Positions 2,794-45,661 are shown, counted from the first letter of the stretch. The stretch is 64,000 nt of DNA from Caldilineales bacterium (GCA_037443945.1 JBBINH010000004.1:64976-128975), one strand, 5' to 3'. Numbers and translations are program-made. The notes: generated from the sequence alone by a model not told the origin.

Positions 2794-3279
2794 ATGGTGA
2801 GATGGCTGCATGAACACGGTGAAGCTCGCCGGCGATGGATATTCGGAATGCTGGCCGTGGTGAGCGTTCTGATGCTCGCAGCTCAAGTATGGGCCACCCG
2901 AAAGGAGGCGTCGGCTCGCGAGTGGTCTGAGTTGTCCGAAGCGCGAGTTACACGAGAAGAAAAAGGAGCCGACGCCTCAGAGGGGGCGGTCTGCCGGTTC
3001 TCCGGACCGGCCCGGATGCAGCTGGCGCCGACCTCTCCCGGTACCCAAGTCGAAGCCTGGGTGGACGGAGAGAAGGTGGCCGAGACGGAGGTAGTCGGTC
3101 AGGGCGAGGAAAGCCTCTACTCCTTGATCCTAGACCGCCGCTACGCGGGCAAGACCGTGGTCTTCCGCTTTTCCGCTTATCCTCACCTCGGTGAGGCGGG
3201 ACGGGCCACCTGCGTGTTGGGTCAGGAGCAAGCCCTGACCCTGAGTGCCGAATCCCATCGCGGTTGTGGAGGTGGGTAG
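2794..3279 (+). CDS. Hypothetical signal-anchored protein.
   Basis: N-terminal hydrophobic segment (IFGMLAVVSVLMLAAQVWA). No recognisable catalytic motif. Tightly packed between the FmdE-like and Mrp genes. Confidence 0.4.
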   Translation: MVRWLHEHGEARRRWIFGMLAVVSVLMLAAQVWATRKEASAREWSELSEARVTREEKGADASEGAVCRFSGPARMQLAPTSPGTQVEAWVDGEKVAETEVVGQGEESLYSLILDRRYAGKTVVFRFSAYPHLGEAGRATCVLGQEQALTLSAESHRGCGGG

Positions 3280-4058
3280 TGAGTACCATCCGACACGCCA
3301 TCGCCGTAGCCAGCGGTAAGGGTGGTGTGGGCAAGAGCACCGTGGCGGTGAACCTAGCCGTGGCCCTGGCCGAGACCGGCGCCAAAGTGGGCCTGTTGGA
3401 CGGCGACATCTACGGCCCTTCCATCCCGGTGATGACGGGCTTGGCGGGACAGCATCCCCATTCACCCGACGGGGATCGGGTATTGCCGCTGATCAGTCAC
3501 GGGATCAAGTTGATGTCCATGGGCTTTCTCGTCGAGGAAGCCGAGTCCCTGGCCTTCCGGGGCCCTGTTGTCCACCAGGTGCTGCAGGAGTTCCTGCAAG
3601 ACGTAGAGTGGGACGACCTGGACTACCTGATCGTAGACCTGCCCCCCGGCACCGGCGATGCGGTGATCACCCTTATCCACTCCCTGCCTTTGAGCGGGGT
3701 CATCATCGTGAGTACTCCGCAGAACCTGGCCGTGGTCTCCGTCGTGCGTTGCGTGGCCCTGTTTCGGGAACGTGAAATCCCCATTCTGGGCGTCATCGAG
3801 AACATGAGCCAATCGATTTGCCCTCATTGCGGGGAGATACTCGACATCTTCGGTTCCGGGCACAAGGTCCGGGATATGTGCGCTTATTGGGAGATCCCGT
3901 TTTTGGGCGGTATACCCCTCGATCCGCGGGTGCGCGAGAGCGGGGACATGGGGATACCCGTAGTATTGCGCTTACCGAACTCCCCTGCGGGCCGGGCGCT
4001 GACGCGCATCGCCCAGACGTTAGAGGCCTGGCTCCCTATAGCCCACCGAGAGAGGTAA
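3279..4058 (+). CDS. Mrp/NBP35 (ApbC-like) family P-loop ATPase, Fe-S cluster carrier type (paralog 1).
   Basis: Deviant Walker A SGKGGVGKST and C-terminal CPHCG motif. GTG start preceded by GGAGGT. Confidence 0.8.
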   Translation: MSTIRHAIAVASGKGGVGKSTVAVNLAVALAETGAKVGLLDGDIYGPSIPVMTGLAGQHPHSPDGDRVLPLISHGIKLMSMGFLVEEAESLAFRGPVVHQVLQEFLQDVEWDDLDYLIVDLPPGTGDAVITLIHSLPLSGVIIVSTPQNLAVVSVVRCVALFREREIPILGVIENMSQSICPHCGEILDIFGSGHKVRDMCAYWEIPFLGGIPLDPRVRESGDMGIPVVLRLPNSPAGRALTRIAQTLEAWLPIAHRER

Positions 4059-4233
4059 CCAACCATGCCCACCGTCGGAATTCCCCTGCCGATGAGACCG
4101 ATCATGGCCTGCGGTTGTCTTGTCCGGTCAGGTGTTGGGCATTGACCCACCCGATCGGAAAAGCGTTTGTTGATAACTCCTACGACGGTTATAGCGTTGC
4201 GTTTATCCTGATTTTTTCGAAAAGGAGGCATTC

Positions 4234-6255
4234 ATGCTGAACATCCAAGTTCTCAACACCCATGTGTCCCAACGCCAGGGATTTGCATCGCAGAGCACCG
4301 TCCTGCCGGACACCTTCGTCCGCTGGCAGCTGGAAGCCCGGCACAAGATACATCAGGCCATCGCTAACGGCGGGCATCCCCGCCGGAACCCGGCCCACCT
4401 GCCGGTGATGATCACCTTCGAGGCCGAGGGCAGCTTTCCCATTCGCGTTGTCAGCAAGGGCGCCGGCTTCACCCCCCGAGACGAGAAGCTGCAGCCCTAC
4501 ATCGATCTGCTGGAAGAAACCATCGTCCGCTGCGAGGGCCGACCCTGGGAGGAGACCCTTTCCGACCGTGTGGCCGCCGTCCGGGCATTGCTCGATCATC
4601 CGGAGGACATCGATCTCCGCCGACTGGGCTTCTTGGAGATCTTCGGTAGCGGCACCTACCGCAACCTCCAACGCGACCCGCGCGTGGTGCTCCACTACAC
4701 CGGCGACGGCCCCGATTATCCCTCCTTCCAGATCAACGGCTATGTCGAGCTTTTGGATCAGGATGACCCCCGCTACCGCTACATCGCCCTGGCCCGCTTC
4801 ATTTTCGAGAGGGCACCCTTCCACCTGCCCCAGCCCGGTTACGCGGCCGGCTACCTGGTGTGGGTACACGAGGTCGCTGACAAGACGCCGTTCTCCCTAA
4901 TGACACAGCCCAACTTGTACAACATACCCCGCGCAACACCCAATCTGCAGCACGCAGTACGCAATACTCCCGCCGCCTCAGTGGAGCCGGCGCAAGAGGC
5001 TGTCACCTTAGCCGGTCCGGAGCAAGCAGACCCGCAGGAGGATGCGGTCACCTTTCGCGAGATATTGGTTCCCCTTGACAATTCCAAGTACAGCACCTGG
5101 GCCATGGAGATCGCACTCCAGATCGCCGGCGTGTACGGCTCCAAGGTCGTGGGCAACCACGTCTACGCCGCCCGCCTGCACGACAAACGTTTTCGCGATA
5201 TGGAACCGGGCCTACCCGAAGAGTACCAGGAACCGACCATCTTGGCCCACCAGCGGGAGCTGCATGACACGCTCATCGAGAAAGGGCTCAAGCTGATTTC
5301 CGACTCCTACCTGGAAGTTCTCAAAGCCCGGTGCCAGGAGGCCGGCCTGCGCTTCGAGGGCAAGACGCCTGAGGGCAAGAACTACGCCGAGTTGGTCCGG
5401 GACATTGAAACGAGCAGGTACGACCTGGTGGTGATGGGCGCGCGAGGCATGGGAGAAGTCTGGCGTCGAGGGAAGCGACGGGATCAGGTGCTGGGGAGCG
5501 TGTGTGAGCGCGTGGTGCGTCGGGTGAACCGTGACGTGCTGGTGGTGAAAGACGATCGCCCGCTGGGCGGTACCTTCGTGGTGGGGGTAGACGGCAGCGA
5601 TCGGGGCTTCGCCGCCCTGCGGGTGGCTCTGGCCCTGGCGGAGGCCACCGGCGCACGGGTGCAGGTGGTAGCCGTCTACGACCCCTTCCTGCACAAGGCG
5701 GTGTTCAACGAGCTGGAAGAGGTGCTGACCGAAGAGGCCAAACAGGTCTTCGACACCGAAGCCCAAAAGAAGCTCCACGACGAGTTGGTGGACAGCGGTA
5801 TCGCCCGGCTTTATGTGGAACACTTGCAGACGGCGCAACGCATCGCCGCAGAGTTGGGGGCGGAGATAGAGACACACCTGCTGGCAGGCAACCCGTATGC
5901 GGCCTTGTTGCGCCACATGGAAGAAGTGAAACCCACCCTGCTGCTCATTGGACGCACGGGGCTTCACGCCGACGAGCGCTTGGACATCGGCTCCAACGCC
6001 GAGAACCTGCTGCGGTTGGCTCCATGCCACGTGTTGCTGGTAGGGCGCATCTTCACCCCGACGTGGGCGGAAACGCGGCGGGTCGTTGAGGAAGGGCTGG
6101 CCTGGACACCCGAAGCGCTGGCGCGACTGGAGCGGGTGCCCGACTTCGTGCGGGGGATGGTGCGCAAGGCCATCGAGACCTACGCGCGGGAGCACGGGCT
6201 CGATGTGGTGACGGAAGAGACCGTCGTCGAAGCACGCCGGCGATTTGGCATGTGA
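4234..6255 (+). CDS. Multidomain protein: unknown N-terminal domain (~230 aa) + two universal stress protein (UspA) domains + C-terminal PCP_red (protochlorophyllide reductase BchB/ChlB C-terminal-type) domain.
   Basis: Usp-like blocks (ILVPLDNS...LVVMGARGMG...VLVVKD and FVVGVDGS...LLLIGRTG...HVLLVGR). C-terminus LAWTPEALARLERVPDFVRGMVRKAIETYAREHGLDVVTEETV matches the W(T)xEA..L..VP.FVRG.VR...E.YAR..G consensus of the BchB C-terminal domain. AAGGAGG RBS 5 nt upstream of ATG. Confidence 0.7.
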   Translation: MLNIQVLNTHVSQRQGFASQSTVLPDTFVRWQLEARHKIHQAIANGGHPRRNPAHLPVMITFEAEGSFPIRVVSKGAGFTPRDEKLQPYIDLLEETIVRCEGRPWEETLSDRVAAVRALLDHPEDIDLRRLGFLEIFGSGTYRNLQRDPRVVLHYTGDGPDYPSFQINGYVELLDQDDPRYRYIALARFIFERAPFHLPQPGYAAGYLVWVHEVADKTPFSLMTQPNLYNIPRATPNLQHAVRNTPAASVEPAQEAVTLAGPEQADPQEDAVTFREILVPLDNSKYSTWAMEIALQIAGVYGSKVVGNHVYAARLHDKRFRDMEPGLPEEYQEPTILAHQRELHDTLIEKGLKLISDSYLEVLKARCQEAGLRFEGKTPEGKNYAELVRDIETSRYDLVVMGARGMGEVWRRGKRRDQVLGSVCERVVRRVNRDVLVVKDDRPLGGTFVVGVDGSDRGFAALRVALALAEATGARVQVVAVYDPFLHKAVFNELEEVLTEEAKQVFDTEAQKKLHDELVDSGIARLYVEHLQTAQRIAAELGAEIETHLLAGNPYAALLRHMEEVKPTLLLIGRTGLHADERLDIGSNAENLLRLAPCHVLLVGRIFTPTWAETRRVVEEGLAWTPEALARLERVPDFVRGMVRKAIETYAREHGLDVVTEETVVEARRRFGM

Positions 6256-7133
6256 AAATGAAAACCTACCACGAGATCACCGGTGATGGCGGCTCGGACA
6301 TCCTGGGGCAGGTGAGGGCCCTGAAGGAACGGCTGGAGGCCCGCCTGAGCCGGATAGAAAACGTGATCGCCGTGATGAGCGGCAAAGGCGGTGTGGGCAA
6401 GAGCACGATCACCGCCAGCCTGGCGACCCTTCTCGCCGATCGGGGCTACACCGTCGGCGCGGTGGATGCCGATCTGAACGGCCCGGCTCTTGCCCGGATG
6501 CTGGGCGTGCACGGCCGGCAGGTGCGGCTCACCGCCGACGGCGTGGCGCCCGCCATCGGTGCGGCCGGCGTCCGCGTTATCTCCATGGACTTCTTCCTGC
6601 CTGACGAGGCTACCCCGGTCGCATGGAACCACCCCGGCGGGCTGGCGGCCGATACCACCGTCTGGCGCGGGACCATGGAGGCCACGGTGCTACGGGAGTT
6701 TCTGATGGACACTACCTGGGGGGAGTTGGACTTTCTCTTCCTGGACTTGCCTCCGGGGAGCGACCGTTTCGCCGCCGTGGCCGGCCTGCTGCCCCGGCTG
6801 GCGGGGGTAATCGTGGTCACCGTGCCCAGCCTGGTCTCCCAGGCGGTGGTGAAGAAAGCCATTACCGCCGCCCAGGAGCGGGGCGATCCCCTGCTGGGAG
6901 TGGTGGAAAACATGGCGGGCTATGTCTGCCCGGTCTGCGGCACGGTGAGCCCGCTGTTCCCCGGTGATGGGGTCCAGGAGATGGGGTTGCCACTGCTGGG
7001 CCGCATCCCCTTCGATCCACGCCTGGCGGAGGGGGCCGATGTCGGCCTACCTTTCGCCCTCACCCATCCCGATACGCCGGCTGCTCAAGCCCTGGCAGAA
7101 CTGACTACGGCCGTCGAAGGAGCGCTGTCATGA
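6252..7133 (+). CDS. Mrp/NBP35 (ApbC-like) family P-loop ATPase (paralog 2).
   Basis: SGKGGVGKST Walker A and CPVCG C-terminal motif. Start overlaps the stop of the upstream gene; the true start may be ATG at 6258. Confidence 0.8.
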   Translation: MKMKTYHEITGDGGSDILGQVRALKERLEARLSRIENVIAVMSGKGGVGKSTITASLATLLADRGYTVGAVDADLNGPALARMLGVHGRQVRLTADGVAPAIGAAGVRVISMDFFLPDEATPVAWNHPGGLAADTTVWRGTMEATVLREFLMDTTWGELDFLFLDLPPGSDRFAAVAGLLPRLAGVIVVTVPSLVSQAVVKKAITAAQERGDPLLGVVENMAGYVCPVCGTVSPLFPGDGVQEMGLPLLGRIPFDPRLAEGADVGLPFALTHPDTPAAQALAELTTAVEGALS

Positions 7134-7564
7134 AGTTCCTCTGTGTTCCCTGTGACGAACCCATGCAGGTGGTGGAAAGCGGTTCCCCGGATGAAACGGG
7201 GAGCTTGCGCGTTCTCTTCCGCTGTCCCCGTTGCGATCACACCACCGCCATGCTGACCAACGCCGGTGAGACGCAACTGGTGCGCTCCCTGGGGGTGCGT
7301 ATCGGTGGCAAGCCGGTGGATTCTGCGGGGCGACTGGAAAACCTGCGTGCCGGGTTGACCCGAATCCGGACCGATGCCCTGCAGACCGAGGAAGAAGCCG
7401 AACCGGTGTGGACGCCGGCAGCGCTCCAACGCCTGAACGCGACGCCCTCCTTCGTCCGGCCCATGATCCGCCAGGCCTACACCGACTATGCCCGGCAACA
7501 CGGCCTGCGCGAAATCACCCCGGAGGTGATGGATGCGGCCCGACAGGCGTTGGGGATGGGCTGA
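7130..7564 (+). CDS. Small protein: N-terminal Cys4 zinc ribbon + C-terminal PCP_red domain.
   Basis: CVPC...CPRC motif. C-terminus VWTPAALQRLNATPSFVRPMIRQAYTDYARQHGLREITPEV is a PCP_red domain. ATGA overlap with upstream Mrp stop indicates translational coupling. Confidence 0.65.
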   Translation: MKFLCVPCDEPMQVVESGSPDETGSLRVLFRCPRCDHTTAMLTNAGETQLVRSLGVRIGGKPVDSAGRLENLRAGLTRIRTDALQTEEEAEPVWTPAALQRLNATPSFVRPMIRQAYTDYARQHGLREITPEVMDAARQALGMG

Positions 7565-7641
7565 TCGAACGCACGTGATCCCGTCACCATAAGCGGTTCT
7601 TATCCGGGCACTCCACCTCGATGAGGAAGAAGTGACTCAGG

Positions 7642-8103
7642 ATGGAAGCCTCTTCGGAGAACAAAGGGTCTGCTTTGGAGGCGACCTTAGGGGCCCGACG
7701 GTTCCGCCAGGCCGGCTGGACGTACCTGCTGGCCGGTACGGCCGTCATCCTCTTCACCCTGACCGCTGGCCTGGTGCCTCCCAGCCGCCTGCCTCGTCTA
7801 TTCCTGCTGCTGCCCGGTCTCGGTTTCGTGATCCTGTTCGGCGCCCTTATCATCCTGGCCCCCCGGCTTTGGCGCCGGCCGTGGACGGTCGGCTTCAGCC
7901 GGTGGCTGGCGCGTCTGTTGGCCCTCACCAACGCCGGCCGAACCTGCCTTTTCCTCCTCAATGCTGCCGGACTCAACGTCCACGTTTTCCGCTCATCCGG
8001 ACCGGCTTTTTTCATGGTACGCACGGACCCGGAGCCGCTCTTCCTGGTCAACGCCGGCCTCACCGGTCTCATTGCGGTGATGCTGGCCCGCGCCGGCCGG
8101 TGA
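7642..8103 (+). CDS. Hypothetical integral membrane protein (about 4 TM helices).
   Basis: Hydrophobic segments throughout. Same strand, between the PCP_red protein and the radical SAM gene. Confidence 0.45.
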   Translation: MEASSENKGSALEATLGARRFRQAGWTYLLAGTAVILFTLTAGLVPPSRLPRLFLLLPGLGFVILFGALIILAPRLWRRPWTVGFSRWLARLLALTNAGRTCLFLLNAAGLNVHVFRSSGPAFFMVRTDPEPLFLVNAGLTGLIAVMLARAGR

Positions 8104-8143
8104 AGCCCTCTTCGTAAGCCCAAGAAGTCCGGGAGGTCGAGAA

Positions 8144-9448
8144 ATGCCACAGGACGATACGCACCATAGAACACGCAGTATGCGATTTACCCCCTCCATC
8201 ATCTCCTGGAACCTGACCCGGCTGTGCAACGAGCGCTGCCGGCACTGCTACCTGAACGCCGGCCCTTACGCCGACCGCTCCGACGAGTTCTCCACCGATG
8301 AGTGCCTAGAGGTGCTGGCCCAGCTCCGGGAGTTGGCGCCGGGAGCGTTGATCATCTTCACCGGTGGGGAGCCCCTGCTACGGGAGGACATCTACGACCT
8401 GGTGCGGGCGGCCCGTGAGGCGGGTTTCACCGTGGTGGTGGGTACCAACGGCATCCGCCTCACGCCGGAGCGGCTGGCCCGACTGCGGAAGGCCGGGGTG
8501 CAGGGGGTGGCCCTCAGCCTGGACTCGCTGCGCCCGGAAGTGCATGATGCCTTTCGAGGGCGACAAGGGGCATGGCAGGCGACCGTCGCCAGCATCGAAC
8601 ACCTGCGAGAGGATGGGCTGCCCTTCGTGCTCCAGACCACCGTCAGCCGTGCCAACTTGAAGGAGCTCCCCGACCTGGTGGCCTTCGCTGCCGCGAAGAA
8701 GGCACGCACCCACAACCTCTACTTTCTGGTCCCCACCGGCCGCGGTCAGACTTTCACCAGCGACATCACGCCCCACGAGTACGAGGCGTTGTTGCAGGAC
8801 ATCCGCCGCTGGCAGGAGGTCTACGCCGACCGCTTGCTTCTCTCGGCCAAGTGCGCGCCCCATTACCAGCGCGTGTTGTGGGAGTACGATCCCGATTCCC
8901 CCTACCTGCGCGCCTTCGACCAGGGGGCCGGCGGCTGCCCGGCGGCGATGCATTACCTGGGTATCCGCCCCAACGGCGATGTGACCCCTTGCCCTTACCT
9001 ACCGGTCTACGGCGGCAACCTGCGCCGGCAGTCTCTGGCGGCTATTTGGCACGAGTCGGAACTGTTCCGCCGCCTGCGGCAGCGCCACGCCTTGGCCGAC
9101 CGCTGCGGCGTCTGCGAGTTTCGCCTTCTGTGCGGGGGATGCCGGGCCCGCGCCTATGGTGTCACCGGAGATGTGATGGGGCCGGATCCCTGGTGTGAGT
9201 ACGAGCCGGGCGCCCGGGGCGGCCAATGGATCACCCCGGACGGAGCCGTAGCCTACGGCCTTGCCGTGGAGGGCGAGTTGACCTGGACACCGGAGGCGCA
9301 GCGGCTGCTGGAGGTTATCCCCTCCTTTGTGCGGGGACGCGTCCGGCACAGCGTAGAGGCTTACGCCCGTCAACATGCCTTATCCCTGGTCACCATCGAG
9401 GTGATGCAACAGGCCCGGAAGAAACGGGCCCTCCTGCCGGACTCATGA
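8144..9448 (+). CDS. Radical SAM enzyme with SPASM-type auxiliary cluster domain (AhbC/AhbD/NirJ-like) fused to a C-terminal PCP_red domain.
   Basis: CNERCRHCY radical SAM CxxxCxxC motif in a IISWNLTRLC context resembling tetrapyrrole-modifying rSAMs. Downstream Cys-rich SPASM region (CPAAMHY...CPYLP...CGVCEFRLLCGGCRARAY). C-terminus LTWTPEAQRLLEVIPSFVRGRVRHSVEAYARQHALSLVTIEV is a PCP_red domain. GGGAGG RBS 7 nt upstream of ATG 8144. Confidence 0.8.
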   Translation: MPQDDTHHRTRSMRFTPSIISWNLTRLCNERCRHCYLNAGPYADRSDEFSTDECLEVLAQLRELAPGALIIFTGGEPLLREDIYDLVRAAREAGFTVVVGTNGIRLTPERLARLRKAGVQGVALSLDSLRPEVHDAFRGRQGAWQATVASIEHLREDGLPFVLQTTVSRANLKELPDLVAFAAAKKARTHNLYFLVPTGRGQTFTSDITPHEYEALLQDIRRWQEVYADRLLLSAKCAPHYQRVLWEYDPDSPYLRAFDQGAGGCPAAMHYLGIRPNGDVTPCPYLPVYGGNLRRQSLAAIWHESELFRRLRQRHALADRCGVCEFRLLCGGCRARAYGVTGDVMGPDPWCEYEPGARGGQWITPDGAVAYGLAVEGELTWTPEAQRLLEVIPSFVRGRVRHSVEAYARQHALSLVTIEVMQQARKKRALLPDS

Positions 9449-9628: not shown

Positions 9629-9697
9629 TGAGGGCACAACAACGGGACTCATACTACGCGCTACGAAGCCCTCACCGGACCCCCGGCGGCCCGCTTG

Positions 9698-9814
9698 GAC
9701 TCGGTTCTATCTTTTGTTGGTGAGAACGTTTGAACGTTAGAACGTTTGAACGTTAGAACGTTTGAACGTTATGCCTGCCTACCCCTCTTGCGCCAACACA
9801 CTCCGGAACCATCT
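9698..9814 (+). mobile_element. MITE-like nonautonomous element, copy 1 (about 117 bp), with imperfect right end and internal 8-bp tandem repeat.
   Basis: Left terminus GACTCGGTTC. Shares more than 90% of its sequence with copies at 31931-32024 (inverted) and 45307-45408. Flanked by CCCGCTTG on both sides (9690-9697 and ~9815-9822) consistent with an 8-bp TSD; the right TIR is degraded (GGAACCATCT instead of GGAACCGAGTC). Confidence 0.6.
9724..9771 (+). repeat. Tandem repeat (GAACGTTT/GAACGTTA)x6 inside MITE copy 1; copy number varies between MITE copies (6, 3 and 4 units).
   Basis: Perfect alternation gaacgttt gaacgtta x3 at 9724-9771. Same array with 3 units in copy 2 and 4 units in copy 3. 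AACGTT core is palindromic. Confidence 0.85.
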
Positions 9815-10091
9815 CCCCGCTTGCTTGATCGATCGGCATTGCCAACGTTATGTTACCGAGCGCGCGTTATGAAGACGGCAAAACCGAGAGCGGCCGGACG
9901 GCATTTCAGGCTCAGGCGCATCGGGCATGGTAGCATCACCCGGTCGCCCCTACCGCCTTACCGTTATGTTCATGGTCCAGACCGAGTTGGACCGATTCGG
10001 AAGACGTAGGTCTGGGATCTCGAATCGGTTTGGCGGTGGAAGAGGGGCCTACCGATCACCCAGATGCACTCCTGCAAGAGACACCGAGTTT

Positions 10092-30901: not shown

Positions 30902-31783
30902 CTATTCGAGCGCCAACGCCCGCACCAGGTTCTCGACCGCGTTCTCGTCATCAGGACGTGGCACATCGGCATACACCTCCCACGTCTCCTCATGCGAGAC
31001 GGTCGCCCCGCGTGCAAGCACTTGCAGAGGGCCCAGCGTCTCCAGCTCCAGGCAACGGTGATCGGCGTAGCATTCGCTGGAGCTGCCCTCATCCACATAG
31101 GTCGCCCGCGCATCGTAGCTTGCACGCTTGACAAAAAGAAAGCCGTTCCACCAATAGGCCAGCCAACCGCGCGGATTGGGAAAGCCGATCTTGAACGGTG
31201 AGCTCATGCGCGCCGTGACCAGCAGGTAGCGATTGCCCCAACGCAGCCATGGACTCCCGATATCGGTGTATGGCCAGATGGCCAACCGGCGATTGGGCAA
31301 AACGCCCGTCTGGGCCTGCGATTGCGGCAGAATCGCCACCCCTCCCGTTTGGAGTTGGGTGATGGCCCAAGGAGCACAAGAAACAGGCCATGGCCCCAGA
31401 TGGCTCAAGGTGTGGGTGACGAAGACCCGGGGAGATTCGTCTACCAGGCGCACCGTTATCGTCTTGCGAATGCCGGTGGCATCCTCCCAACGCGAGATGC
31501 ACACACCGCCGGGCACTTCCGCGATCTCTACCGGGTCATCCTCGGGCAGATACGTGCGATCGGGTTCTTCCGGCGCGTGCCAGAGCCGATGACCCCCGTA
31601 CAGACGATAGCGTCGTCCATCGGGCAGGGGAAGGGTCTCATCGGGGAGCTCGGCGAAGAGATTGCTGCCCCCGTGCGGGATGAGGGCCAGCACGCGTGGC
31701 CCTGCCGACCGCATCACCAGCAGACGCAAGGCCGCGTTTTCCAGAATCAGGCAAGGTTGACCGAGAAAGGAAACCGTATCCAT
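30902..31783 (-). CDS. Hypothetical protein.
   Basis: Long ORF, no recognised motif. MITE copy 2 lies 150 bp beyond its 5' end. Confidence 0.4.
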   Translation of the reverse strand: MDTVSFLGQPCLILENAALRLLVMRSAGPRVLALIPHGGSNLFAELPDETLPLPDGRRYRLYGGHRLWHAPEEPDRTYLPEDDPVEIAEVPGGVCISRWEDATGIRKTITVRLVDESPRVFVTHTLSHLGPWPVSCAPWAITQLQTGGVAILPQSQAQTGVLPNRRLAIWPYTDIGSPWLRWGNRYLLVTARMSSPFKIGFPNPRGWLAYWWNGFLFVKRASYDARATYVDEGSSSECYADHRCLELETLGPLQVLARGATVSHEETWEVYADVPRPDDENAVENLVRALALE

Positions 31784-31930
31784 GCTTCGGACCAGACGTT
31801 AAGACAATCAGGCAGCATCCGGTGGACGGCTCAAAGTTCCTGGCAACCCATGATGACATCATCTGTACGTAAGTCTCCCTTCAGATGGCTCACCCATCCT
31901 ACCACAGCCGTGCTTGCCGTCAAGTTTCGA

Positions 31931-32024
31931 GACTCGGTTCCGGAGTGTGTTGGCGCAAGAGGGGCAGGCAGGCATAACGTTCTAACGTTCAAACGTTCTC
32001 TCCGACAAAAGATAGAACCGAGTC
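31931..32024 (-). mobile_element. MITE-like element, copy 2 (94 bp, inverted orientation) with perfect 8-bp target-site duplication AGTTTCGA.
   Basis: TIRs GACTCGGTTC / GAACCGAGTC. AGTTTCGA at 31923-31930 and 32025-32032 directly flanks the element. Internal array has 3 GAACGTTN units. Confidence 0.8.
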
Positions 32025-32212
32025 AGTTTCGATGCCATCCCGAGGAGACAGCACAGCAAGCCTCGAAAAGATTGTGCAACGGTCCCGATGCTGCCGTTGG
32101 CAAGCTGGATCGCAGATCGAAGGTCGGTTTTGCGCTTTGATATGTTCGTTGTCGTCACAACCGGCCTCCTGGTCATATGGCCGATCGCTTCCCCGACGCC
32201 TATTGGTTATAA

Positions 32213-33022
32213 TTGGCAATGTTGCGGCCGTGGGTGCATAGGCGGATGCGATCTGGGTTGTTGCTACGATTGCATTCCTACGCTATGAGTGTTGCGGATA
32301 CCCGGCAACGTTTGGCATTGTGGTCGGTAATTCCCTACGGGACCCGAGGCATCCACCGGGTCGGCGATTATCTGATCATCGGTTTGGAAACGGCGCCGGC
32401 CGATCTCGCTCACAGTCATCTGATCGACGAGTGGGCGACCTGTCTGGCCGAAGTTTGCCGACACGATGATCTTGCTCTGCGCGCCCATCTGGGCGATGGC
32501 CTGACAACCGGCGGTCTTGCCACCCTGGCCCTGGCCGCATTGCAAGGGGAACTGTTCTTGCCCCAGGTCGAGAGATGTTGGGTCCCTTTGGCCGAGCTGT
32601 TGAGCACCGCTCCCGAGCATCTACGCGCAGCCGTGGCGGTGCGCTTGCCGTGTGGTGACGAGGCCTACGGCAGCGCCTTTATCGTTACGCCCACCGTGCG
32701 GGGCATCACCACCGCCCTGCAGGCCGTAGCCGCCTCCATCCGGCTCGACCGAAAACAGCGCCTGGTCAAGGCGGTCGGCTTGGCCCTGTTACCTCGCTGC
32801 GGTTCGATCGTCGTCACGGCCTTGGCCGAGACGGTGTTGCGCGGTCAGGCCGTCACGGTGGCAGCCATTGCCCAGGCGGCCCAGGCCGTTCAGGCCCAAA
32901 CCCAGGAGGTGCTGGGCCCCGGTATCCCTTCATCCGCCTTTCCCGTCTCGATGACGGCCCACCTGGTGCGCAAGGCCTTGGACCGGGCGGCGGCGCGAGC
33001 CCTGGCCATGTTGGCGGCCTGA
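32213..33022 (+). CDS. Hypothetical protein (Ala/Leu-rich).
   Basis: ORF only; start uncertain (alternative start near 32285). Confidence 0.3.
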   Translation: MAMLRPWVHRRMRSGLLLRLHSYAMSVADTRQRLALWSVIPYGTRGIHRVGDYLIIGLETAPADLAHSHLIDEWATCLAEVCRHDDLALRAHLGDGLTTGGLATLALAALQGELFLPQVERCWVPLAELLSTAPEHLRAAVAVRLPCGDEAYGSAFIVTPTVRGITTALQAVAASIRLDRKQRLVKAVGLALLPRCGSIVVTALAETVLRGQAVTVAAIAQAAQAVQAQTQEVLGPGIPSSAFPVSMTAHLVRKALDRAAARALAMLAA

Positions 33023-36091: not shown

Positions 36092-38206
36092 TCAAGGCGT
36101 CTCCGCGGGGAACAGACGCAGCGCCGGATCGCCCAGGAGCGCAAAGGTGAGGAGGACATCTCGCTGTCCCCCCTGTCCGGGGTCGAGGCGGTGCAACGCT
36201 GCCCGCCAGGCCTCGCCAAGGGTGGCCTCATGAAAGAGATGATGGCCGAAAAGCGCCTGCGCCAGCACCTCCTGATCGCCGGGATAGGTTTCGGCCGTAG
36301 GCACCAAGGCCGCCACGATGCCGCTCGTGGGGCTCAGGACCAGCGCTTCGCCCAGGGATTGGCGTTGCGGATGGATGAAGTAGCCGCTGAGACAGGCCCA
36401 CATCAGCACAAGCCCGAGCCGATCTCCGGCCCGCAACTGCGCTACATCTTCCGTATGCAGGATGCCCTCTTGCGCCCATAAGTCGAGGGCGCCGTGTCCC
36501 ACGTAATTCAGCAGCCGTCGGCCTTCGTTTAGACTTTGTCGCAGAGCGACGCGCACATCGGCATCCACACCTATCGTCAGCGTCGTCGGGTGAAAGGCCT
36601 CCGGTAGGAGGGAAAGGAGACGGGCGTTGAAGTCGCGGAAGAAGGGGTCGTCATCATCGCTCACGAAGAGCATCTGCCGACGCCATGGGCCCGGCGGCAG
36701 CGCCTGCTCGTAGGTGAGCGTCTTGGCGACCATGGTGGCCACATCGGCCGGACTTTGCGCCGGAAAGCGGCCCACGGCCAGGTCGGGCCGTTCGTCGCCG
36801 TCCAGGTCGGCCAAGGCGGCGTCGCCTGCCGTTGCTCCTATGACTTGGGTGTGTACGGTGGCCGTCGGCACCAGGTTCTTGTAAGGTCCTTGCAGGTAGT
36901 CATAGGGATCATAACTGGCATCGCCTACCAGGAGTACAAAACGGGGCGTCGGCGGTGGCCATTCGGCTACGGCTTGGCGCAAAAAGGCCCTGATAGCCGC
37001 CGCCGTGAGGTGCCCGGCGCCGAACGCATCGGCAATTTGATCGGTGGTGACAAGCGCAGTGCGCAACCCCTGCTGTTGCCGCCAACGCAGGAGCGGTTCT
37101 ACCGCCGCCGTCAGGGAGGGATGGGCAATGGTGATATAATCGGCCCCGTCTGGGACGGCGGGAAGAGGCGCTATCGGCCGAATCGTGCGCGGGGACAACA
37201 ACGCCCCGGCGGTGGCCGCCCAATAGTGACCGGGGGTCTGGCTCGTCCGGCCAAAACGCAGCCGATAGCTCCCACCCATCTTGCTTACGAGGCCATCCGT
37301 CAGACGGCGTGGGGGCGTGGCGGCTACATCCCACAGCTCGATATCGGGGCCGGAAAACCCGCCGATCTCGACCACCGGCGCCGTGGTGACAAAGGCAATG
37401 GTGTCGTCTGTCGCCACCAGGCTACGGGTGTAGGTGATGACCACCCGGTTGAGATACATCAGTTCGACCGGCGCTCCGGTGTCGCCCGGCGCCGTCAGAC
37501 TCAGGATGTTCGAGCCTTCGCGCAGGGTGCCGGCGGGAACGGAGAGAACCAGGCGGCGGCGGCCGCGGCCATCCCAGGTCTCCTCGGCCAGAAAACGCCC
37601 GTTGAGGGCCAAACGCAGCCGATGGTCAGGCGCAACGGCCGCCTGGCTGGCCGACCACAGCTCGATGGCGAGCTGAGCCGGTTCGCTCGTCGGTCGGGAG
37701 AGCACGACTTCTGCGCTCAACTCGGCCGGCGCCAGCAGCCGATCACCCACCCAGGGGTCGCCCTCGGCGATGGCGGGCAGATAGGTGCGCCGGAACACGG
37801 CTTCCACGACGGCCAGCCCTGTCGTCGTCGCCGGCCCGCCGCGCGGCGGGGCCGGTTCGACCATCGCCACCTGACCCTGGGTCCGGCCGAGTCGATAAAC
37901 CGCCGGGCCTGCGGCCGGCACGCGACCGGGAAAACGCAACTCCCGGTTGCGGCCATGGCCGATGAGCGCAAAGGGCACCGGCCGGTTGCCGTCGTTCAGA
38001 GACAAAGCCTCGGCCTCCAGCCGGACCAAGTCCCAGCCGAAGGGCAGCAGATCGCGGCGCTCGAGGCGATAGAGCCCGTCCCGTTCGAGCACAAGGACCA
38101 AACCTTCGGCGGCCGGCGATGCCGGTGTGGGCCGGGCGCAGGCAACGGTTACCAGGCCGATGAGCAGGCTCCACACGATGCCGAGACGCCTGTAGACGGT
38201 GTTCAC
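36092..38206 (-). CDS. Secreted peptidase C25 (gingipain-type cysteine peptidase) family protein, paralog 1.
   Basis: N-terminal signal peptide. Catalytic-dyad context LLNYVGHGALDLW...(33 aa)...MWACLSGYF reproduces the gingipain His/Cys spacing. GTG start at 38204-38206 forms a GTGA overlap with the upstream gene stop; the longer ORF reaches 38242. Confidence 0.7.
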   Translation of the reverse strand: MNTVYRRLGIVWSLLIGLVTVACARPTPASPAAEGLVLVLERDGLYRLERRDLLPFGWDLVRLEAEALSLNDGNRPVPFALIGHGRNRELRFPGRVPAAGPAVYRLGRTQGQVAMVEPAPPRGGPATTTGLAVVEAVFRRTYLPAIAEGDPWVGDRLLAPAELSAEVVLSRPTSEPAQLAIELWSASQAAVAPDHRLRLALNGRFLAEETWDGRGRRRLVLSVPAGTLREGSNILSLTAPGDTGAPVELMYLNRVVITYTRSLVATDDTIAFVTTAPVVEIGGFSGPDIELWDVAATPPRRLTDGLVSKMGGSYRLRFGRTSQTPGHYWAATAGALLSPRTIRPIAPLPAVPDGADYITIAHPSLTAAVEPLLRWRQQQGLRTALVTTDQIADAFGAGHLTAAAIRAFLRQAVAEWPPPTPRFVLLVGDASYDPYDYLQGPYKNLVPTATVHTQVIGATAGDAALADLDGDERPDLAVGRFPAQSPADVATMVAKTLTYEQALPPGPWRRQMLFVSDDDDPFFRDFNARLLSLLPEAFHPTTLTIGVDADVRVALRQSLNEGRRLLNYVGHGALDLWAQEGILHTEDVAQLRAGDRLGLVLMWACLSGYFIHPQRQSLGEALVLSPTSGIVAALVPTAETYPGDQEVLAQALFGHHLFHEATLGEAWRAALHRLDPGQGGQRDVLLTFALLGDPALRLFPAETP

Positions 38207-39261
38207 GGCCCGTCTCTCCGGAGCGTGCGGCGATAGAACCATCCGCCGATGGCGATCAAAGCGCCGGCCACAGCCAAGGCGGCCAGACCGATGCGCACAA
38301 AAAGACCGGCTTCGCTTCCGTTCCGGTGCGAGGACGCCGCCGTTGTGGGCGGCAGACGCACGCCGAAGGCGTTGGGCGACGGGATCGATGTCACCCTCTC
38401 CGATGTGACGGTTATGGGCAACGAGACCGTTGCGGTCACGTCGGCGGCAAGCGTTGGCGCCGGCATCGCCGTGGGGGGCCGAGGTGAGGGCATCGGCGCC
38501 TCGACCCCGGCCGCAGGGGTGGACTCGACCACCGTCGGCGCCGTTGCGCCCGCACCGGGCATGGCCGTCGGTACGGGTGCGACCGTTGGCGGCACCGTGG
38601 GCGTGTCCCCAGGTCTATCCGCAGGGGGTGGCAGGGTCGAAGCCGATGTCGGCGTGGAGAGGAGCGATGGCGTGGCCGTTGATGGGGTTGGATCGGAGGT
38701 TACCGGTGTGGGTGTGGGCGTAGGCAGCGGGGTGGCCGTGGGTGAGGGTGTGGGCGTGGGTGTCGCCGTGGGCGAGGGTGTGGCCGTCGCCGTAGGGGAG
38801 ATGCGCACCGTCGGCGAAGGGGTCGGTGTGAGGGTAGGGAGAAGGGGGGTGAAGGTTGGCGTGGGTGTGGGGGGAGTAGCTCCGGGCAAGGATACCATCA
38901 CCGGGGGATGCGAAGTGAGTCGGCCGTAGCCGTCCATGTCGTCAAGCCGATACCAGTACGTATGGCCCGGCAGCACGGTGTTATCCTCGAAGCGATAATA
39001 GGCGCCTGTGACCACGTCCCCACGGGCCGGGATTTGATGGACCTGTTGCCAGGGCCCGTTTTCGTTCTCCGCGCGTTGGACCAGGAACAGCAGATTGTCG
39101 GGTTCGGTGGCCGTCTCCCACTCGATGAGAATACGCCTCGCTTCCGGCTGCGCCGTGGCTCGGAAGTAGAGCAGGGTCACACTGGCCTGGACCATGGCGG
39201 TCAGGGTCAGGTTCAAGCAAAACAGGCCGACGAGAACGGCAAGGCGCCGACCATACCTCAT
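38203..39261 (-). CDS. Pro/Thr-rich cell-surface protein: signal peptide, small beta (FN3-like) domain, long PT-rich linker, C-terminal TM helix with basic tail.
   Basis: N-terminal hydrophobic leader. More than 100 aa of PTPTPSPTATP low complexity. C-terminal LFVRIGLAALAVAGALIAIGGWFYRRTLRR anchor. Sandwiched in-operon between two C25 peptidase paralogs. Confidence 0.5.
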   Translation of the reverse strand: MRYGRRLAVLVGLFCLNLTLTAMVQASVTLLYFRATAQPEARRILIEWETATEPDNLLFLVQRAENENGPWQQVHQIPARGDVVTGAYYRFEDNTVLPGHTYWYRLDDMDGYGRLTSHPPVMVSLPGATPPTPTPTFTPLLPTLTPTPSPTVRISPTATATPSPTATPTPTPSPTATPLPTPTPTPVTSDPTPSTATPSLLSTPTSASTLPPPADRPGDTPTVPPTVAPVPTAMPGAGATAPTVVESTPAAGVEAPMPSPRPPTAMPAPTLAADVTATVSLPITVTSERVTSIPSPNAFGVRLPPTTAASSHRNGSEAGLFVRIGLAALAVAGALIAIGGWFYRRTLRRDGP

Positions 39262-39263
39262 GG

Positions 39264-41546
39264 CTAACGCAGGACAAGAGGCCAATAGAGGGCATCGGCC
39301 GGACCGGGCAGGCGCAAGGCCGGGTCGCCGAAGAGGGTCATGGTGTCGATCAGATAATGAGGGCCGCCGTGCTCCTGGTAGTAGGCCTGCTGTGCCGCCA
39401 GGAGGGCCTCACCCAGGGTGCGCCCGGCGTCGTCGAAGAGCGCCGCCATCAGCAATTGCCGAAAACGGTGCTGGTCGAGAGTCCAACCCAGCCCGGAGGG
39501 CGAAATGGCGGCAATGGCGCCGCCATCGGCCCGGCGCTGCATGACCTCGGCCAGGGCAAACAAACCGGGTTGAGGATGGGCAAAGTAGCCGTCCAAGCAA
39601 TTGAAGGTGAGGACAACCGGTAACCGCGGCGCATGAGGACTCAGTTGGGCTACATCAGCGGTCGTCCAGATCGATTCGTGGGCCCAGCGATTGGGCGCAC
39701 CGTGTCCAGCGTATTGGACCATAAACACGCCCGCGTTCAGGGCCGCGGCGATGGCCTGGCGCGCGGCGTCGCCGCTGGTCACCGTGCTCCCCAGATAAAC
39801 CCGTTGCGGGATCAGGTCGACCGGGACATGCGCGGCGATGATGGCATCGCTCAAGGCCGGAAAAGCGCCTGCCTCATCCTCGTTATCGGCCACGAACAAG
39901 ATACGGCGTTGCCAGAGCTCCCGGCGGCGGTCACCGTCGTAGGTCTCGATTTTGGCCACGACGGCTTCGGCTTCGGCCAGGGTATTGACGGCAATGCGGC
40001 CCACGGCCACATCGGGTAAACCGTCACCGTTGGCATCGCCGTAGCGGCTGTCGGCAGGCACCTCGCCCTGCCAGGGATCCACCCAAGCCAGGAAAGGCGG
40101 GACATGCTGCGGTTGGGGCGGGTAGAGGGCCGGATTGTAGCCCTTGAAGTTCCAATGGCCGTCGCCGAAGAGCACAAGATAGCGCGGTTTGGGTTCGGGC
40201 CAGTGGGTTTGGGCCCAGGCCAGCAGCGCCGGTATCGCCCGGGGATGGTTGATGCCGTCATGGAACTCGTCCACGGCATCGGCCCAGAGGACTACCCGCG
40301 CCGAACGACCCTGTCGCTCATGCCAGGCGGCCAGCCGTTGCGCCGCCGGGGCCAGTTCATCGGAGGTGACGATGACCACCTCATATCCCCTGTCCGGCGT
40401 CCGCAATCCGGTAGGCGGCCGCAGGCGCAGAGTGGCCGGCTGCCGGAACGTGGCCTCGTCCTGAAGCCAGTAGCGGGCACCGGCCCCGGCCCGGCTGCGA
40501 AAGCGCAGACCCTGGCCCACCGCGCCCGTCTCCGGCCGCGCACCCACCAGACGTTGCGGCCGGGTCGGATCGGTGATCTCCCAAATGGCGACCCGATGGG
40601 CCCGGTCCCAGCCATCGCTGGCGTACTCCTGAGGGCCATCCTGTTCGGTGGCGAAGGACAGCCACTCCTCCCAGGCGCGGAACAGGCGTCGGTACTCAAG
40701 CTGCCAATAGTTGACATAAAGCCAATCGGCCGATGTGGGCGGCAGGTTGAAGGCGCTGATGCTCACCTCGTTACGACCATGGGCGAACAGCGAGGCCGAA
40801 ACGGGCATGGTAAAGACGCGGGTCGTTTTGCCGGCCCAGGTGTAATCGCCCACCGGAGCGGTGCCAACGGCGATGCTCGTGCGGCGGTTGACCGCCGCGC
40901 GGCTGCTCAGTTCGACCGTGAGTCGAAAACGGCCTTGGGTGGCAGGGTAAGGCACGGTATAGGGCAATGTCACGGTGACTCCCTGGCCCACGCCCACCGG
41001 CCGCAGCTCGGCCCACAGCCAGGTATCGTAGGTGACCGGCGTGGCCGTGTGATAGGTGTACCAATAGCGGTTTTCCTCGGCCCGCACCACGGCGGCGAAA
41101 TCGGTTGGCGGCGCGCCATCACCCAGTGGGGTTGCCTCGATCTCGGTGATCCGTGGACCGGCCGCGGCGCCGATGTCGAGCCAGTAGACCCGTTCGTCGG
41201 TGTACTTTTCCACCATCGGATCCGCGCGCAAACGCTCGCCGAAGAACTCGATGCTATCGCCGGGATCAAAATGGCCGTCCGCCTCGCCGAGCACGCGTAT
41301 AGCGACCGGCTGACCCAGGCTGCTGAGGGCAAAAGTGCGGGGATCCACGGTCTCCACCGCCACCCCGGCCGTCCTCAGGTCCTCAGGGGTAAGGCGGTAG
41401 ATGCCGTCGGCCACGATGCCGATGCGCACGCGGATGACGGGCGTGGTCGCGTCGGCGGCCGATGCCTGTTGCGCCGTAGCCGGCAGGGTGAGAATAGGAC
41501 TGAACAGAAGGCCGATGAGCAGCGAGGCAACGATGGTGCTTCGCAT
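39264..41546 (-). CDS. Secreted peptidase C25 (gingipain-type) family protein, paralog 2.
   Basis: Signal peptide. MVQYAGHGAPNRW...(33 aa)...LTFNCLDGYF His/Cys dyad context. N-terminal domain similar to paralog 1. Confidence 0.7.
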   Translation of the reverse strand: MRSTIVASLLIGLLFSPILTLPATAQQASAADATTPVIRVRIGIVADGIYRLTPEDLRTAGVAVETVDPRTFALSSLGQPVAIRVLGEADGHFDPGDSIEFFGERLRADPMVEKYTDERVYWLDIGAAAGPRITEIEATPLGDGAPPTDFAAVVRAEENRYWYTYHTATPVTYDTWLWAELRPVGVGQGVTVTLPYTVPYPATQGRFRLTVELSSRAAVNRRTSIAVGTAPVGDYTWAGKTTRVFTMPVSASLFAHGRNEVSISAFNLPPTSADWLYVNYWQLEYRRLFRAWEEWLSFATEQDGPQEYASDGWDRAHRVAIWEITDPTRPQRLVGARPETGAVGQGLRFRSRAGAGARYWLQDEATFRQPATLRLRPPTGLRTPDRGYEVVIVTSDELAPAAQRLAAWHERQGRSARVVLWADAVDEFHDGINHPRAIPALLAWAQTHWPEPKPRYLVLFGDGHWNFKGYNPALYPPQPQHVPPFLAWVDPWQGEVPADSRYGDANGDGLPDVAVGRIAVNTLAEAEAVVAKIETYDGDRRRELWQRRILFVADNEDEAGAFPALSDAIIAAHVPVDLIPQRVYLGSTVTSGDAARQAIAAALNAGVFMVQYAGHGAPNRWAHESIWTTADVAQLSPHAPRLPVVLTFNCLDGYFAHPQPGLFALAEVMQRRADGGAIAAISPSGLGWTLDQHRFRQLLMAALFDDAGRTLGEALLAAQQAYYQEHGGPHYLIDTMTLFGDPALRLPGPADALYWPLVLR

Positions 41547-43453: not shown

Positions 43454-45250
43454 CTATTCCGCAAAAAGACGACGATAGGCGGGCGAAGTCCGCAAGAGGG
43501 TTTCGTGGTCCCCCATGGCAGCGATGCGTCCTTTGCGCAGGACGATGATCCGATCGGCCCAGCGGATTTGCGAGAGGCGGTGGGTGATGATCAACGTCGT
43601 GCGCCCGCGTGCGGCGGCGTAGATGGCCTGTTGGATTTTGTCTTCGGTAGCGCTGTCAATGGAGCTGGTCGCGTCATCGAGGATGAGGATGCGCGGATCG
43701 GTCAGAAAGGCGCGGGCCAGGGCCAGGCGCTGGCGCTGACCACCCGAGAGGGTGACCCCACGCTCGCCGACGACGGTGTCGTAGCCGTCTTTGAAGGCCA
43801 TAATGAAGTCATGCGCCTGGGCGGCGCGGGCGGCGGCTTCGATCGCCGCTCGCGTGGCGTCGGGTTTGCCAAAGGCGATATTTTCGGCAATGGTGCGCGA
43901 GAAGAGGAAGATATCCTGCTCGATCACGGCAATCTGGCGGCGCAGGGCCTCCAGGTTCCAATCGCGCACGTCCACACCGTCGATGCATACCCGCCCGGCG
44001 CCCACGTCGTAGGTGCGATTGACCAGTTTGACCAGGGTGGTTTTACCGGCGCCGGTCTGGCCGACAATGGCCACGGTCTGGCCCGGCGCCACGGTAAAGG
44101 AAATATCATGGAGCACCGGTTCGCCGTCTTCTTCGTAAGCGAAGGTCACGCCCTCGAAGGCAATATGACCGACCATCGGTTGCGCATAGCCGGTCGGGTT
44201 CTGGTCCAGATGGGTTTCACGGTTGATCAGGTCGAGGATGCGCCGGGCAGCGGCCAGACCCGACGAGACCTGCGAATAGGCGAAAAGGGAAACAAAGGTC
44301 GGAAAGTTCAGCATCTGCAAAAGGCCGAAGTAGGCGACCACATCACCGACGGTCAGCCATCCCCGATGCAACAGGAACAAAGCATGGCCCAGGCCGGCGG
44401 CCGCAGCCATGCCCAAAAACAGTAAGGGCAGAAAACGGGCTTCGACATTGCCCTGCCGCACCAGAGCACGACGAAAGGCTCCGGCGGCCTCGGCGAAGCG
44501 GCGGACCTCGGCCTCTTCCTGGACCGCCGCCTTGACCGTCTCAATGCCGTCCAGGACCTCGGCCAGGCGGGCGTTCATCCGACCGAAACGGGCCCGCACC
44601 TCATCGGTGATAGGGCGCAATTCGCGCAGATAGTGGGCCAGGGCCAGCACATAGAACACGATATACACGGCCGGTGTGATAACCAGGGCCGGATGGTAGC
44701 GCAGGGCCAGGAACAACGGCATGAACAAGAAAAAGCCCGAGCCGACAACCAGGTTGAGGCCGGGGTTGAACATCAGGTTGATCTCGCGCACGTCGTTGGT
44801 GGCGCGGGCCATGGTATCGCCTATCGGCTGCAGACTATGAAAGGTCATGCTCTTGCCCAACAGGCTGACATACAGCTCCTGGCGGATATCCCGTTCCAGG
44901 CGTTGACCGATCATCTCGGCACCGCCGTTGCGTCCGAATTGCAGCACGCTGCGGGCCAATTGCGTGGCGATGATCCACAACGCCGCCCGTCCGATGGCCG
45001 GGATATCCGGCGGCCTTTGCAGGACGGCATTGAAAGCCAGGCCGGTGTAGATCGGGATGGCTGCGGCCAGGGCGGCATTGCTGAAAGCGCCGATAAGCAT
45101 CACCACCCCCCATGGCCAGTGGCGCAGGCTATGGAAGAGCAACCAGCGCACGGCCCCGCGACGGTCGCTGCGATAGGGCAGGTGGAGGGTGAACTCGGCC
45201 GAAGCGGTGGCAGGGGTCATGGCAGCGTTACCGGATAAACCCGTTATCAT
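43454..45250 (-). CDS. ABC transporter, fused permease/ATP-binding (partner half-transporter; likely heterodimeric exporter).
   Basis: Walker [10 protein letters not shown], signature LSGGQRQ, Walker [12 protein letters not shown]. 4-nt gap to the downstream paralog. Confidence 0.8.
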
Positions 45251-45306
45251 CGTAAGAACGACCGCATGCCCATTGTACTGCCTGGACCGGGGAAGGCGAA
45301 ACCGCA

Positions 45307-45408
45307 GACTCGGTTCTATCTTTTGTTGGTGAGAACGTTTGAACGTTAGAACGTTAGAACGTTATGCCTGCCTGCCGCTCTTGCGCCAACACACTCCGGA
45401 ACCGAGTC
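45307..45408 (+). mobile_element. MITE-like element, copy 3 (102 bp) with perfect 8-bp target-site duplication AAACCGCA.
   Basis: TIRs GACTCGGTTC / GAACCGAGTC. AAACCGCA at 45299-45306 and 45409-45416. Internal array has 4 GAACGTTN units. Confidence 0.8.
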
Positions 45409-45661
45409 AAACCGCAGGATAGGCCCGGCGACGGGGCCAGGCCGTGCCTGCTCATCGGGCTGTGCTTGCCGGCTTAGGTCCGTGGCGATCGGCGGCGGGC
45501 CATAACGTGTCGCCGATGCTATCTTGAGTCTCCGGCAAAAACCCGAACCTGACCAACCCCCCAACCAGGCGCCAAGGCAGTTGCACAGGATGCGATCCGA
45601 TCCCCAGGGAGCTTCGTCCCGATCGAGTTGGGCCGGGCCTGATCGCAACAGCCCTAAGGCT

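Follow-up and report, generated by a model that had tools for sequence, protein, structure and literature searches.

Bacterial MITEs such as Correia, Nezha, Chunjie and MITEPsy are ~100 bp long, non-coding and intergenic, with terminal inverted repeats (TIRs) and target-site duplications of fixed length, and they show hairpin potential, presence/absence polymorphism and ends in common with full-length insertion sequences (PMC10969869, PMC3184786). The element described here, from a 64-kb stretch of Caldilineales DNA (64,000 nucleotides, the window below), is like them in all these respects; it differs in sequence, in host phylum, and in an internal array of 8-bp units whose number depends on the copy. 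BOX elements of Streptococcus pneumoniae resemble this MITE: they are short, lie between genes, and have conserved end modules around internal units that vary in number. The BOX internal unit is ~45 bp long versus 8 bp in the MITE, and we know of no clear target-site duplications and no transposase for BOX.

The IS256 family makes 8-9 bp duplications, has a conserved subterminal end motif and transposes by copy-out/paste-in via circles (PMC7780238; PMC3189936), and the motif in IS256-family ends is TGTAAA (PMC7780238). The presumed parent of the MITE, a clade of full-length elements described below, is like IS256, ISCth4 and ISPsy17 in its length of 1.5 kb, single ORF, PF00872 domain and 8-bp duplications. 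Also alike are ends of ~25-30 bp that start with GA and contain a subterminal motif, and IRR-(7-9 bp)-IRL junctions in six contigs may correspond to the circles or tandem dimers of IS256. The ISH6 elements of haloarchaea are ~1.45 kb long and have an 8-bp duplication. Two reviews of MITEs make no mention of IS256 (PMC10969869, PMC3184786), and the Chloroflexi do not appear in the 2024 review of prokaryotic MITEs.

The small size, lack of coding capacity, TIRs, 8-bp target-site duplications and near-identical copies support classification of the element as a MITE, a non-autonomous derivative of an insertion sequence. It was originally predicted to be a novel family; this is correct for the sub-family only, and the kind of element is ordinary. 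It is a textbook MITE that alters no concept of the field, and it provides a clean, recently mobile example for the Chloroflexota, the phylum that the 2024 review leaves out.

Copies of the element and their alleles

The window contains three near-identical elements, as the original prediction stated; we re-read them at all three sites and aligned them (Table 1). An nhmmer search with a three-copy profile gave no fourth copy in the window, and no other dispersed repeats of similar length and identity were found within the 64 kb. The 26-nt right-end core and the motif GAACGTTW GAACGTT are confined to these elements within the window (shuffles expect 0). Within the window there are five exact occurrences of the 10-mer GACTCGGTTC, each at an element end; by our own arithmetic, the chance expectation for this 10-mer is ~0.1 in 64 kb on both strands.

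Table 1. Window positions of the three MITE copies, their parts and their flanking duplications.
Feature	Position	Strand	Description
Copy 1	9698-9815	+	118 bp; six GAACGTTW units
Copy 1, left arm	9698-9723		26 nt
Copy 1, array	9724-9771		
Copy 1, right arm	9772-9815		44 nt
Copy 1, left target-site duplication	9690-9697		CCCGCTTG
Copy 1, right target-site duplication	9816-9823		CCCGCTTG
Copy 2	31931-32024	-	94 bp; three units; perfect 10-bp termini
Copy 2, array	31975-31998		
Copy 2, target-site duplications	31923-31930 and 32025-32032		AGTTTCGA
Copy 3	45307-45408	+	102 bp; four units; perfect 10-bp termini
Copy 3, array	45333-45364		
Copy 3, target-site duplications	45299-45306 and 45409-45416		AAACCGCA

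In each element an array of n 8-nt units separates a left arm of 26 nt from a right arm of 44 nt (n = 6 in copy 1, 3 in copy 2 and 4 in copy 3), and the copy lengths (118, 94 and 102 bp) differ by exact multiples of 8. These unit counts agree with those first given, both by alignment and by TRF (5.9, 3.1 and 4.1 units of 8 bp). Over the 70 nt outside the array, identity between copies is 91-96%. The array of copy 1 consists of three repeats of GAACGTTT GAACGTTA, a 16-bp period with 100% identity (TRF), and the arrays of copies 2 and 3 consist of GAACGTTT followed by two or three GAACGTTA units.

The termini common to the copies are GACTCGGTTC...GAACCGAGTC, with an altered right terminus in copy 1. 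The TIRs had been described as 10 bp long. This holds for the perfect part, seen in copies 2 and 3, but the true repeats are imperfect and extend to ~25 bp, with the form GACTCGGTTC-N7-TGTTGG(T/C)G. The left end reads GACTCGGTTC TATCTTT TGTTGGTG and the right end, in reverse complement, GACTCGGTTC CGGAGTG TGTTGGCG. The target-site duplications are all perfect 8-mers and differ in each copy (CCCGCTTG, AGTTTCGA and AAACCGCA); the joint chance of three perfect 8-bp flanking duplications is ~(4^-8)^3. The perfect termini and duplications claimed for copies 2 and 3 are present as described.

Copy 1 has CCCGCTTG on both sides, and the degraded right TIR noted for it is real: the terminus is GAACCATCTC in place of GAACCGAGTC. 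Its final five bases are ATCTC versus GAGTC, three clustered substitutions in the 9811-9827 region of the window. The right end of the copy and of its flank had been placed at 9814 and 9822, one base short: the 26-nt core (...GGAACC) stops at 9810 and five terminal bases follow it, which puts the end of copy 1 at 9815. Judged from the sequence of its tip, copy 1 is probably immobile now.

Homologous loci of related populations were retrieved by exact-protein look-up. The refuting condition named with the original prediction, a lack of empty-site alleles, fails at copy 1. In Logan SRR11582144 (L001) and GCA_037441015.1 (L135) the copy is precisely missing and the sequence reads ...GGCCCGCTTGATCGATCGG, with one CCCGCTTG and flanks ~99% identical to the window. 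As both loci may represent a single population, the empty allele is documented for one population at least. The filled allele occurs in the window and in a contig of SRR11582170 (L002) that stops 27 nt inside the element; since the contig enters copy 1, the SRR11582170 population has the filled allele.

An identical copy 2 (n = 3) is found in GCA_034433475.1 and GCA_037441015.1, and the contigs of SRR11582144 and SRR11582170 break 29 nt inside it. Copy 3 (n = 4) is also present in GCA_037441015.1 (L132), and the corresponding SRR11582144 contig (L133) breaks inside it. Copy 1, being polymorphic, is therefore a recent insertion and the youngest of the three; copies 2 and 3 are older and are fixed in the relatives sampled. 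Because copy 1 is polymorphic and its flanks differ by ~1%, it was inserted after the populations split, and a source of transposase was recently at hand. New copies of the unit have arisen elsewhere, each with an 8-bp duplication, and at least one of these insertions is recent. Polymorphic insertions of this type are usable as strain markers.

The contig breaks 27-29 nt inside the element, found in short-read assemblies of two samples, are expected for a multi-copy repeat, and such elements would explain recurrent contig breaks in Chloroflexota MAG assemblies. A separate break affects the contigs L139 and L140 (Logan SRR11582144 and SRR11582154), which both start at exactly the same point, equivalent to window position ~727, in a cytochrome bd-like gene upstream of 924-2132. 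An NCBI relative reads through this point and no element end lies there; strain variation is one possibility.

Unit number is constant at each locus (copy 2 has n = 3 in three full alleles and copy 3 has n = 4 in two). The internal microsatellite had been said to evolve faster than the element. This is true between copies, but at any one locus n is equal in every strain sampled, so the array changes more slowly than strains diverge, or its changes are tied to transposition. An extra CTTG follows the right duplication of copy 1 at 9824-9827 and is absent from both empty alleles. This difference can be slippage between lineages (GCTTGCTTG versus GCTTG), and the altered tip together with the CTTG could result from slippage or from repair after abortive cleavage.

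Insertion sequences with matching ends and their transposase

The original prediction called for a full-length insertion sequence with the same TIRs. We scanned metagenomes with the end motif GACTCGGTTC-N7-TGTTGGCG, which gave at least 120 loci, and sought partner ends with a looser pattern in inverted orientation. At 43 of these loci an inverted partner end lies 1504-1597 bp away (median 1525 bp), so that elements of the kind sought do exist. Other loci have a partner end 156-482 bp away, and at 36 loci the element runs past the contig end. Exact 8-bp duplications flank six of the 40 full-length copies for which both flanks are available, as well as a 3.5-kb pair (L096); a 1522-bp copy in a 130-kb contig (L137, 9892-11413) also has AACTTGTG on each side. 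The remaining 34 of 40 have no recognisable duplication and flanks that look random, which may be due to chimeric assembly of repeat flanks.

The consensus IRL is GACTCGGTTC tAaAgTg TGTTGGTgag and the consensus IRR is GACTCGGTTC tA.cTTg TGTTGGCGagttt. Conservation at positions 1-10 and 18-25 of the searched end is partly by construction, and the partner ends are the more independent evidence. The MITE ends are mosaics of the two consensus sequences and match them also at positions that the search pattern left free; since both ends are mosaic, the comparison does not settle which is IRL and which is IRR. One retrieved end (L015) runs on as GAGAACG, exactly like the left arm of the MITE. The nearest retrieved ends have 4-6 mismatches in 32 nt relative to the MITE ends, so the direct parent lies outside the sample, and the internal sequence of the MITE is absent from the 128 loci that were examined. 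The ends of the MITE are nevertheless those of an insertion sequence clade that encodes a Mutator/IS256-type DDE enzyme and makes duplications of equal length.

The left-end 20-mer of the MITE has only three matches in representative genome contigs. Two of them, in Nitrososphaerales and Alicyclobacillus, have none of the remaining element sequence and seem to be chance matches. The third is a 274-bp element in an Anaerolinea sp. MAG (DYEI01000308.1; L005, 195-468) that shares the bipartite ends and is flanked on each side by the direct repeat GCCCGGCAG, an 8-9 bp duplication. No match was found in any Caldilineales species representative among the genome contigs scanned; either the representative of the host species lacks the element, or that species is outside the collection. 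Two matches in viral contigs have no partner end and are also attributed to chance, and plasmid BLAST matches consist just of simple tandem-repeat-like sequence.

Other short elements with the family ends are found at L097 428-583, L087 8695-9082, L104 9689-10076 and L109 5948-6429. The short derivatives (156-482 bp, including the Anaerolinea element) have unrelated internal sequences, and a flanking direct repeat was seen in the Anaerolinea element only. The same ends around unrelated interiors indicate that the clade has made several independent MITE-like derivatives. Six contigs (L023, L042, L071, L099, L114 and L121) contain IRR-(7-9 bp, mostly 8)-IRL junctions, for example at 1612/1621 in L042 and 1650/1659 in L099, and in three of the six the start of the second copy equals that of the first. 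These could equally be circle junctions, tandem dimers or tandem or adjacent insertions, or the result of a preference for insertion beside the end of another copy.

The full-length elements have one conserved ORF of ~427 aa, disrupted in some copies, whose product starts MNIIERG...W.W+.CP.CG. Invariant in alignments are C28, C31, C62, C65, D170, D233 and E353. The N-terminus contains a four-cysteine zinc motif (CxxC...CxxC), and the protein also has a Mutator/IS256-type DDE domain, with a D-63-D-120-E spacing that resembles the spacing in IS256. All 20 tested members match Pfam PF00872 (Transposase_mut) at E <= 0.01; two of the scores are 23.9 and 26.9 bits, above the gathering score of 21. 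All 20 also match the NCBIfam IS256 model NF033543 weakly, at 31.5-33.8 bits, below its cut-off of 150. The best equivalog match, again in 20 of 20, is the NCBIfam ISH6 model NF041731 (29-36 bits versus a cut-off of 240, E down to 1e-11). Models matched by the N-terminus are IS256_N_4Cys and, weakly, the zinc-binding models of IS1/IS1595 and ISL3.

The relatives have the features by which the IS256 family is recognised (8-9 bp target-site duplication, 1.2-1.5 kb, single ORF, 20-40-bp ends starting GA or GG), with an 8-bp duplication, a length of 1504-1597 bp, one ~427-aa ORF and ends starting GA. They differ from IS256 in the subterminal motif (TGTTGG(C/T)G, not TGTAAA), in the N-terminal CxxC...CxxC module and in score (30-36 bits versus 150), and from haloarchaeal ISH6 in having bacterial Chloroflexota hosts, other ends and ~36 bits versus a cut-off of 240. 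The clade scores far under the cut-off of every NCBIfam transposase model that it matched. As it falls below both the IS256 and the ISH6 cut-offs, we file it as IS256-superfamily-like and as a member of neither family. We tentatively suggest, with somewhat less than even confidence, that the MITE and its 1.5-kb relatives form an undescribed Chloroflexota-associated clade between IS256 and ISH6, marked by the four-cysteine module and the GACTCGGTTC...TGTTGGCG bipartite end.

A sequence search of the PDB gave no transposase match, and the clade transposase has no detectable sequence match to the protein of the ISCth4 structure. An AlphaFold model has a mean pLDDT of 61.5, and Foldseek gives it weak matches to RNase-H-fold transposases and integrases (E >= 0.015); ISCth4 is absent from the top 50 Foldseek matches of this low-confidence model.

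The MITE points to an insertion sequence clade that is abundant in sediment, soil and digester metagenomes and whose transposases are mostly unnamed in public records, or are called 'hypothetical' or 'transposase-like'. At least 1623 relatives occur among 90%-identity clusters, mostly on contigs of ~1.5-2 kb and with the JGI name 'transposase-like protein'. Three named NCBI members, one from a Chloroflexi MAG and two from Anaerolineae MAGs, are annotated as 'hypothetical protein'; entries with this name include P0155 (OQB23988.1) and P0200/P0202 (HQE92900.1, HQH39064.1 and others). Among 1.84 billion representatives at 50% identity, a profile of the clade matched 548 at E <= 1e-3, with about ten full-length proteins among the matches listed. 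With just 548 representatives the clade is compact and seems too small to hold most of IS256. Naming the clade would allow better annotation of Chloroflexota MAGs.

Proposed mobilisation of the element and alternative readings

We consider it very probable that this MITE of Caldilineales (Chloroflexota) consists of two ~25-bp IS256-superfamily ends around ~45-70 bp of non-coding sequence and is mobilised in trans. The mobiliser is likely the IS256-like transposase of a 1.5-kb insertion sequence with matching ends. The original prediction expected a cognate transposase with an 8-bp duplication elsewhere in the genome. At the level of the family such an enzyme is found, encoded by the 1.5-kb elements, but none is encoded in the 64-kb window, where tblastn with 35 long ORFs of the full-length elements (a few wrong-frame) gave no significant match; none was found either in 10 kb of further sequence of a relative.

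The ~427-aa Mutator/IS256-type DDE transposase of a full-length 1.5-kb relative would bind the MITE ends in trans. It may recognise the terminal GACTCGGTTC and the subterminal TGTTGG(C/T)G, comparable to TGTAAA in IS256-family ends, and staggered cuts 8 bp apart at insertion would produce the 8-bp duplications. The route is probably copy-out/paste-in via a circular intermediate, by analogy with IS256 and ISCth4; given the lack of a structural match and the poor model, this is an analogy and not a result. By such a route the donor copies would stay in place, and an empty site would reflect the ancestral allele, not an excision.

Descent from this insertion sequence clade would also be compatible with an orphan or fossil MITE, in a host lineage that has no active transposase and retains the copies as immobile relics. 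The null transposase searches described above fit this, as do the fixation of copies 2 and 3 with identical sequence in every relative, the damaged terminus of copy 1, and the lack of the left-end 20-mer in the Caldilineales species representatives scanned. However, MAGs and short-read assemblies routinely lose copies of insertion sequences, which makes the absence weak evidence, and the polymorphism of copy 1 at ~1% flank divergence argues for a recent source of transposase. We regard the fossil as rather unlikely. Mobilisation by another superfamily that makes 8-bp duplications (IS1595, ISL3, IS6, IS66 or ISH6 proper), with only a coincidental similarity of the ends, is extremely improbable. 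An 8-bp duplication is not specific to one family, and the N-terminal zinc-binding matches to IS1/IS1595 and ISL3 are weak, but both MITE ends fit the ~25-bp bipartite end of the clade at unconstrained positions too, the L015 end continues with GAGAACG as the MITE does, and these ends also delimit the 43 full-length elements, all of which have the same protein.

It is also conceivable, at a very low probability, that the element is retained by host selection as a structured sequence (REP-like, a regulatory hairpin, a terminator or a binding array) with a functional AACGTT array and incidental mobility. In its favour, two copies have RNA folds whose stability exceeds that of shuffled sequences (z about -4.5 to -4.8), each copy lies between genes and near a gene start, and AACGTT palindromes spaced 8 bp apart could be a binding array. 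The fold of copy 2 has a z of only -2.4, however, and the stability comes from inverted ends and a self-complementary repeat, as in any MITE. The orientation of the copies relative to neighbouring genes is inconsistent (+, -, +), the interior is absent from the 128 loci whereas the ends are widespread, and the duplications and the empty site show transposition. Rfam gave no matches at the gathering score in the whole window, and no promoter-like sites were found inside the three elements. ARAGORN found no tRNA or tmRNA genes within the window. A weak stem of five pairs where copy 3 begins on its left side (45300-45315) is the sole terminator-like match that touches an element; two terminator-like sites were found in that region versus 0.5 expected.

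For the MITE mobilised in trans, which remains our preferred reading, the length of the GAACGTTW array most likely changes by replication slippage. AACGTT is palindromic, so the array contributes to the element's potential hairpin. A less likely extension of the new-clade suggestion is that the AACGTT array is a putative functional module for protein binding or structure that tunes mobilisation or the expression of neighbouring genes.

Gene neighbourhoods in the window

All three copies (94-118 bp) are intergenic, as originally reported, and have no coding capacity. The insertions lie 86-280 bp upstream of a sensor kinase, an ABC exporter and a divergent gene pair. Copy 2 occupies the divergent gap between a mutarotase-like gene (30902-31783, -) and an ORF that starts at 32213 (+), and copy 3 lies upstream of the ABC exporter gene (43454-45250, -) and downstream of an ATP-grasp gene (45662-47014, -). 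Effects of the insertions on the expression of downstream genes are possible and putative.

The window also contains other gene clusters. One, at 3264-9448, encodes two CbiA/ParA-like P-loop proteins, a double-Usp protein, a small protein and a radical SAM/SPASM enzyme (AhbD/NirJ-like); in three of the products a PCP_red domain (PF08369) forms the C-terminal end or the whole protein. A 46-nt stretch is 80% identical between the genes of the two P-loop paralogues (3295-3340 versus 6361-6406). At 36092-41546, downstream of the ABC exporter pair, there are two adjacent large Peptidase_C25 (gingipain-like) genes. The next ORF (38203-39285) would be a third such gene, provided that it corresponds to the Peptidase_C25 gene of 704 aa called at the end of L132; this ORF in the window contains a degenerate GGTGTG / 18-30-bp tandem repeat at 38705-38787.
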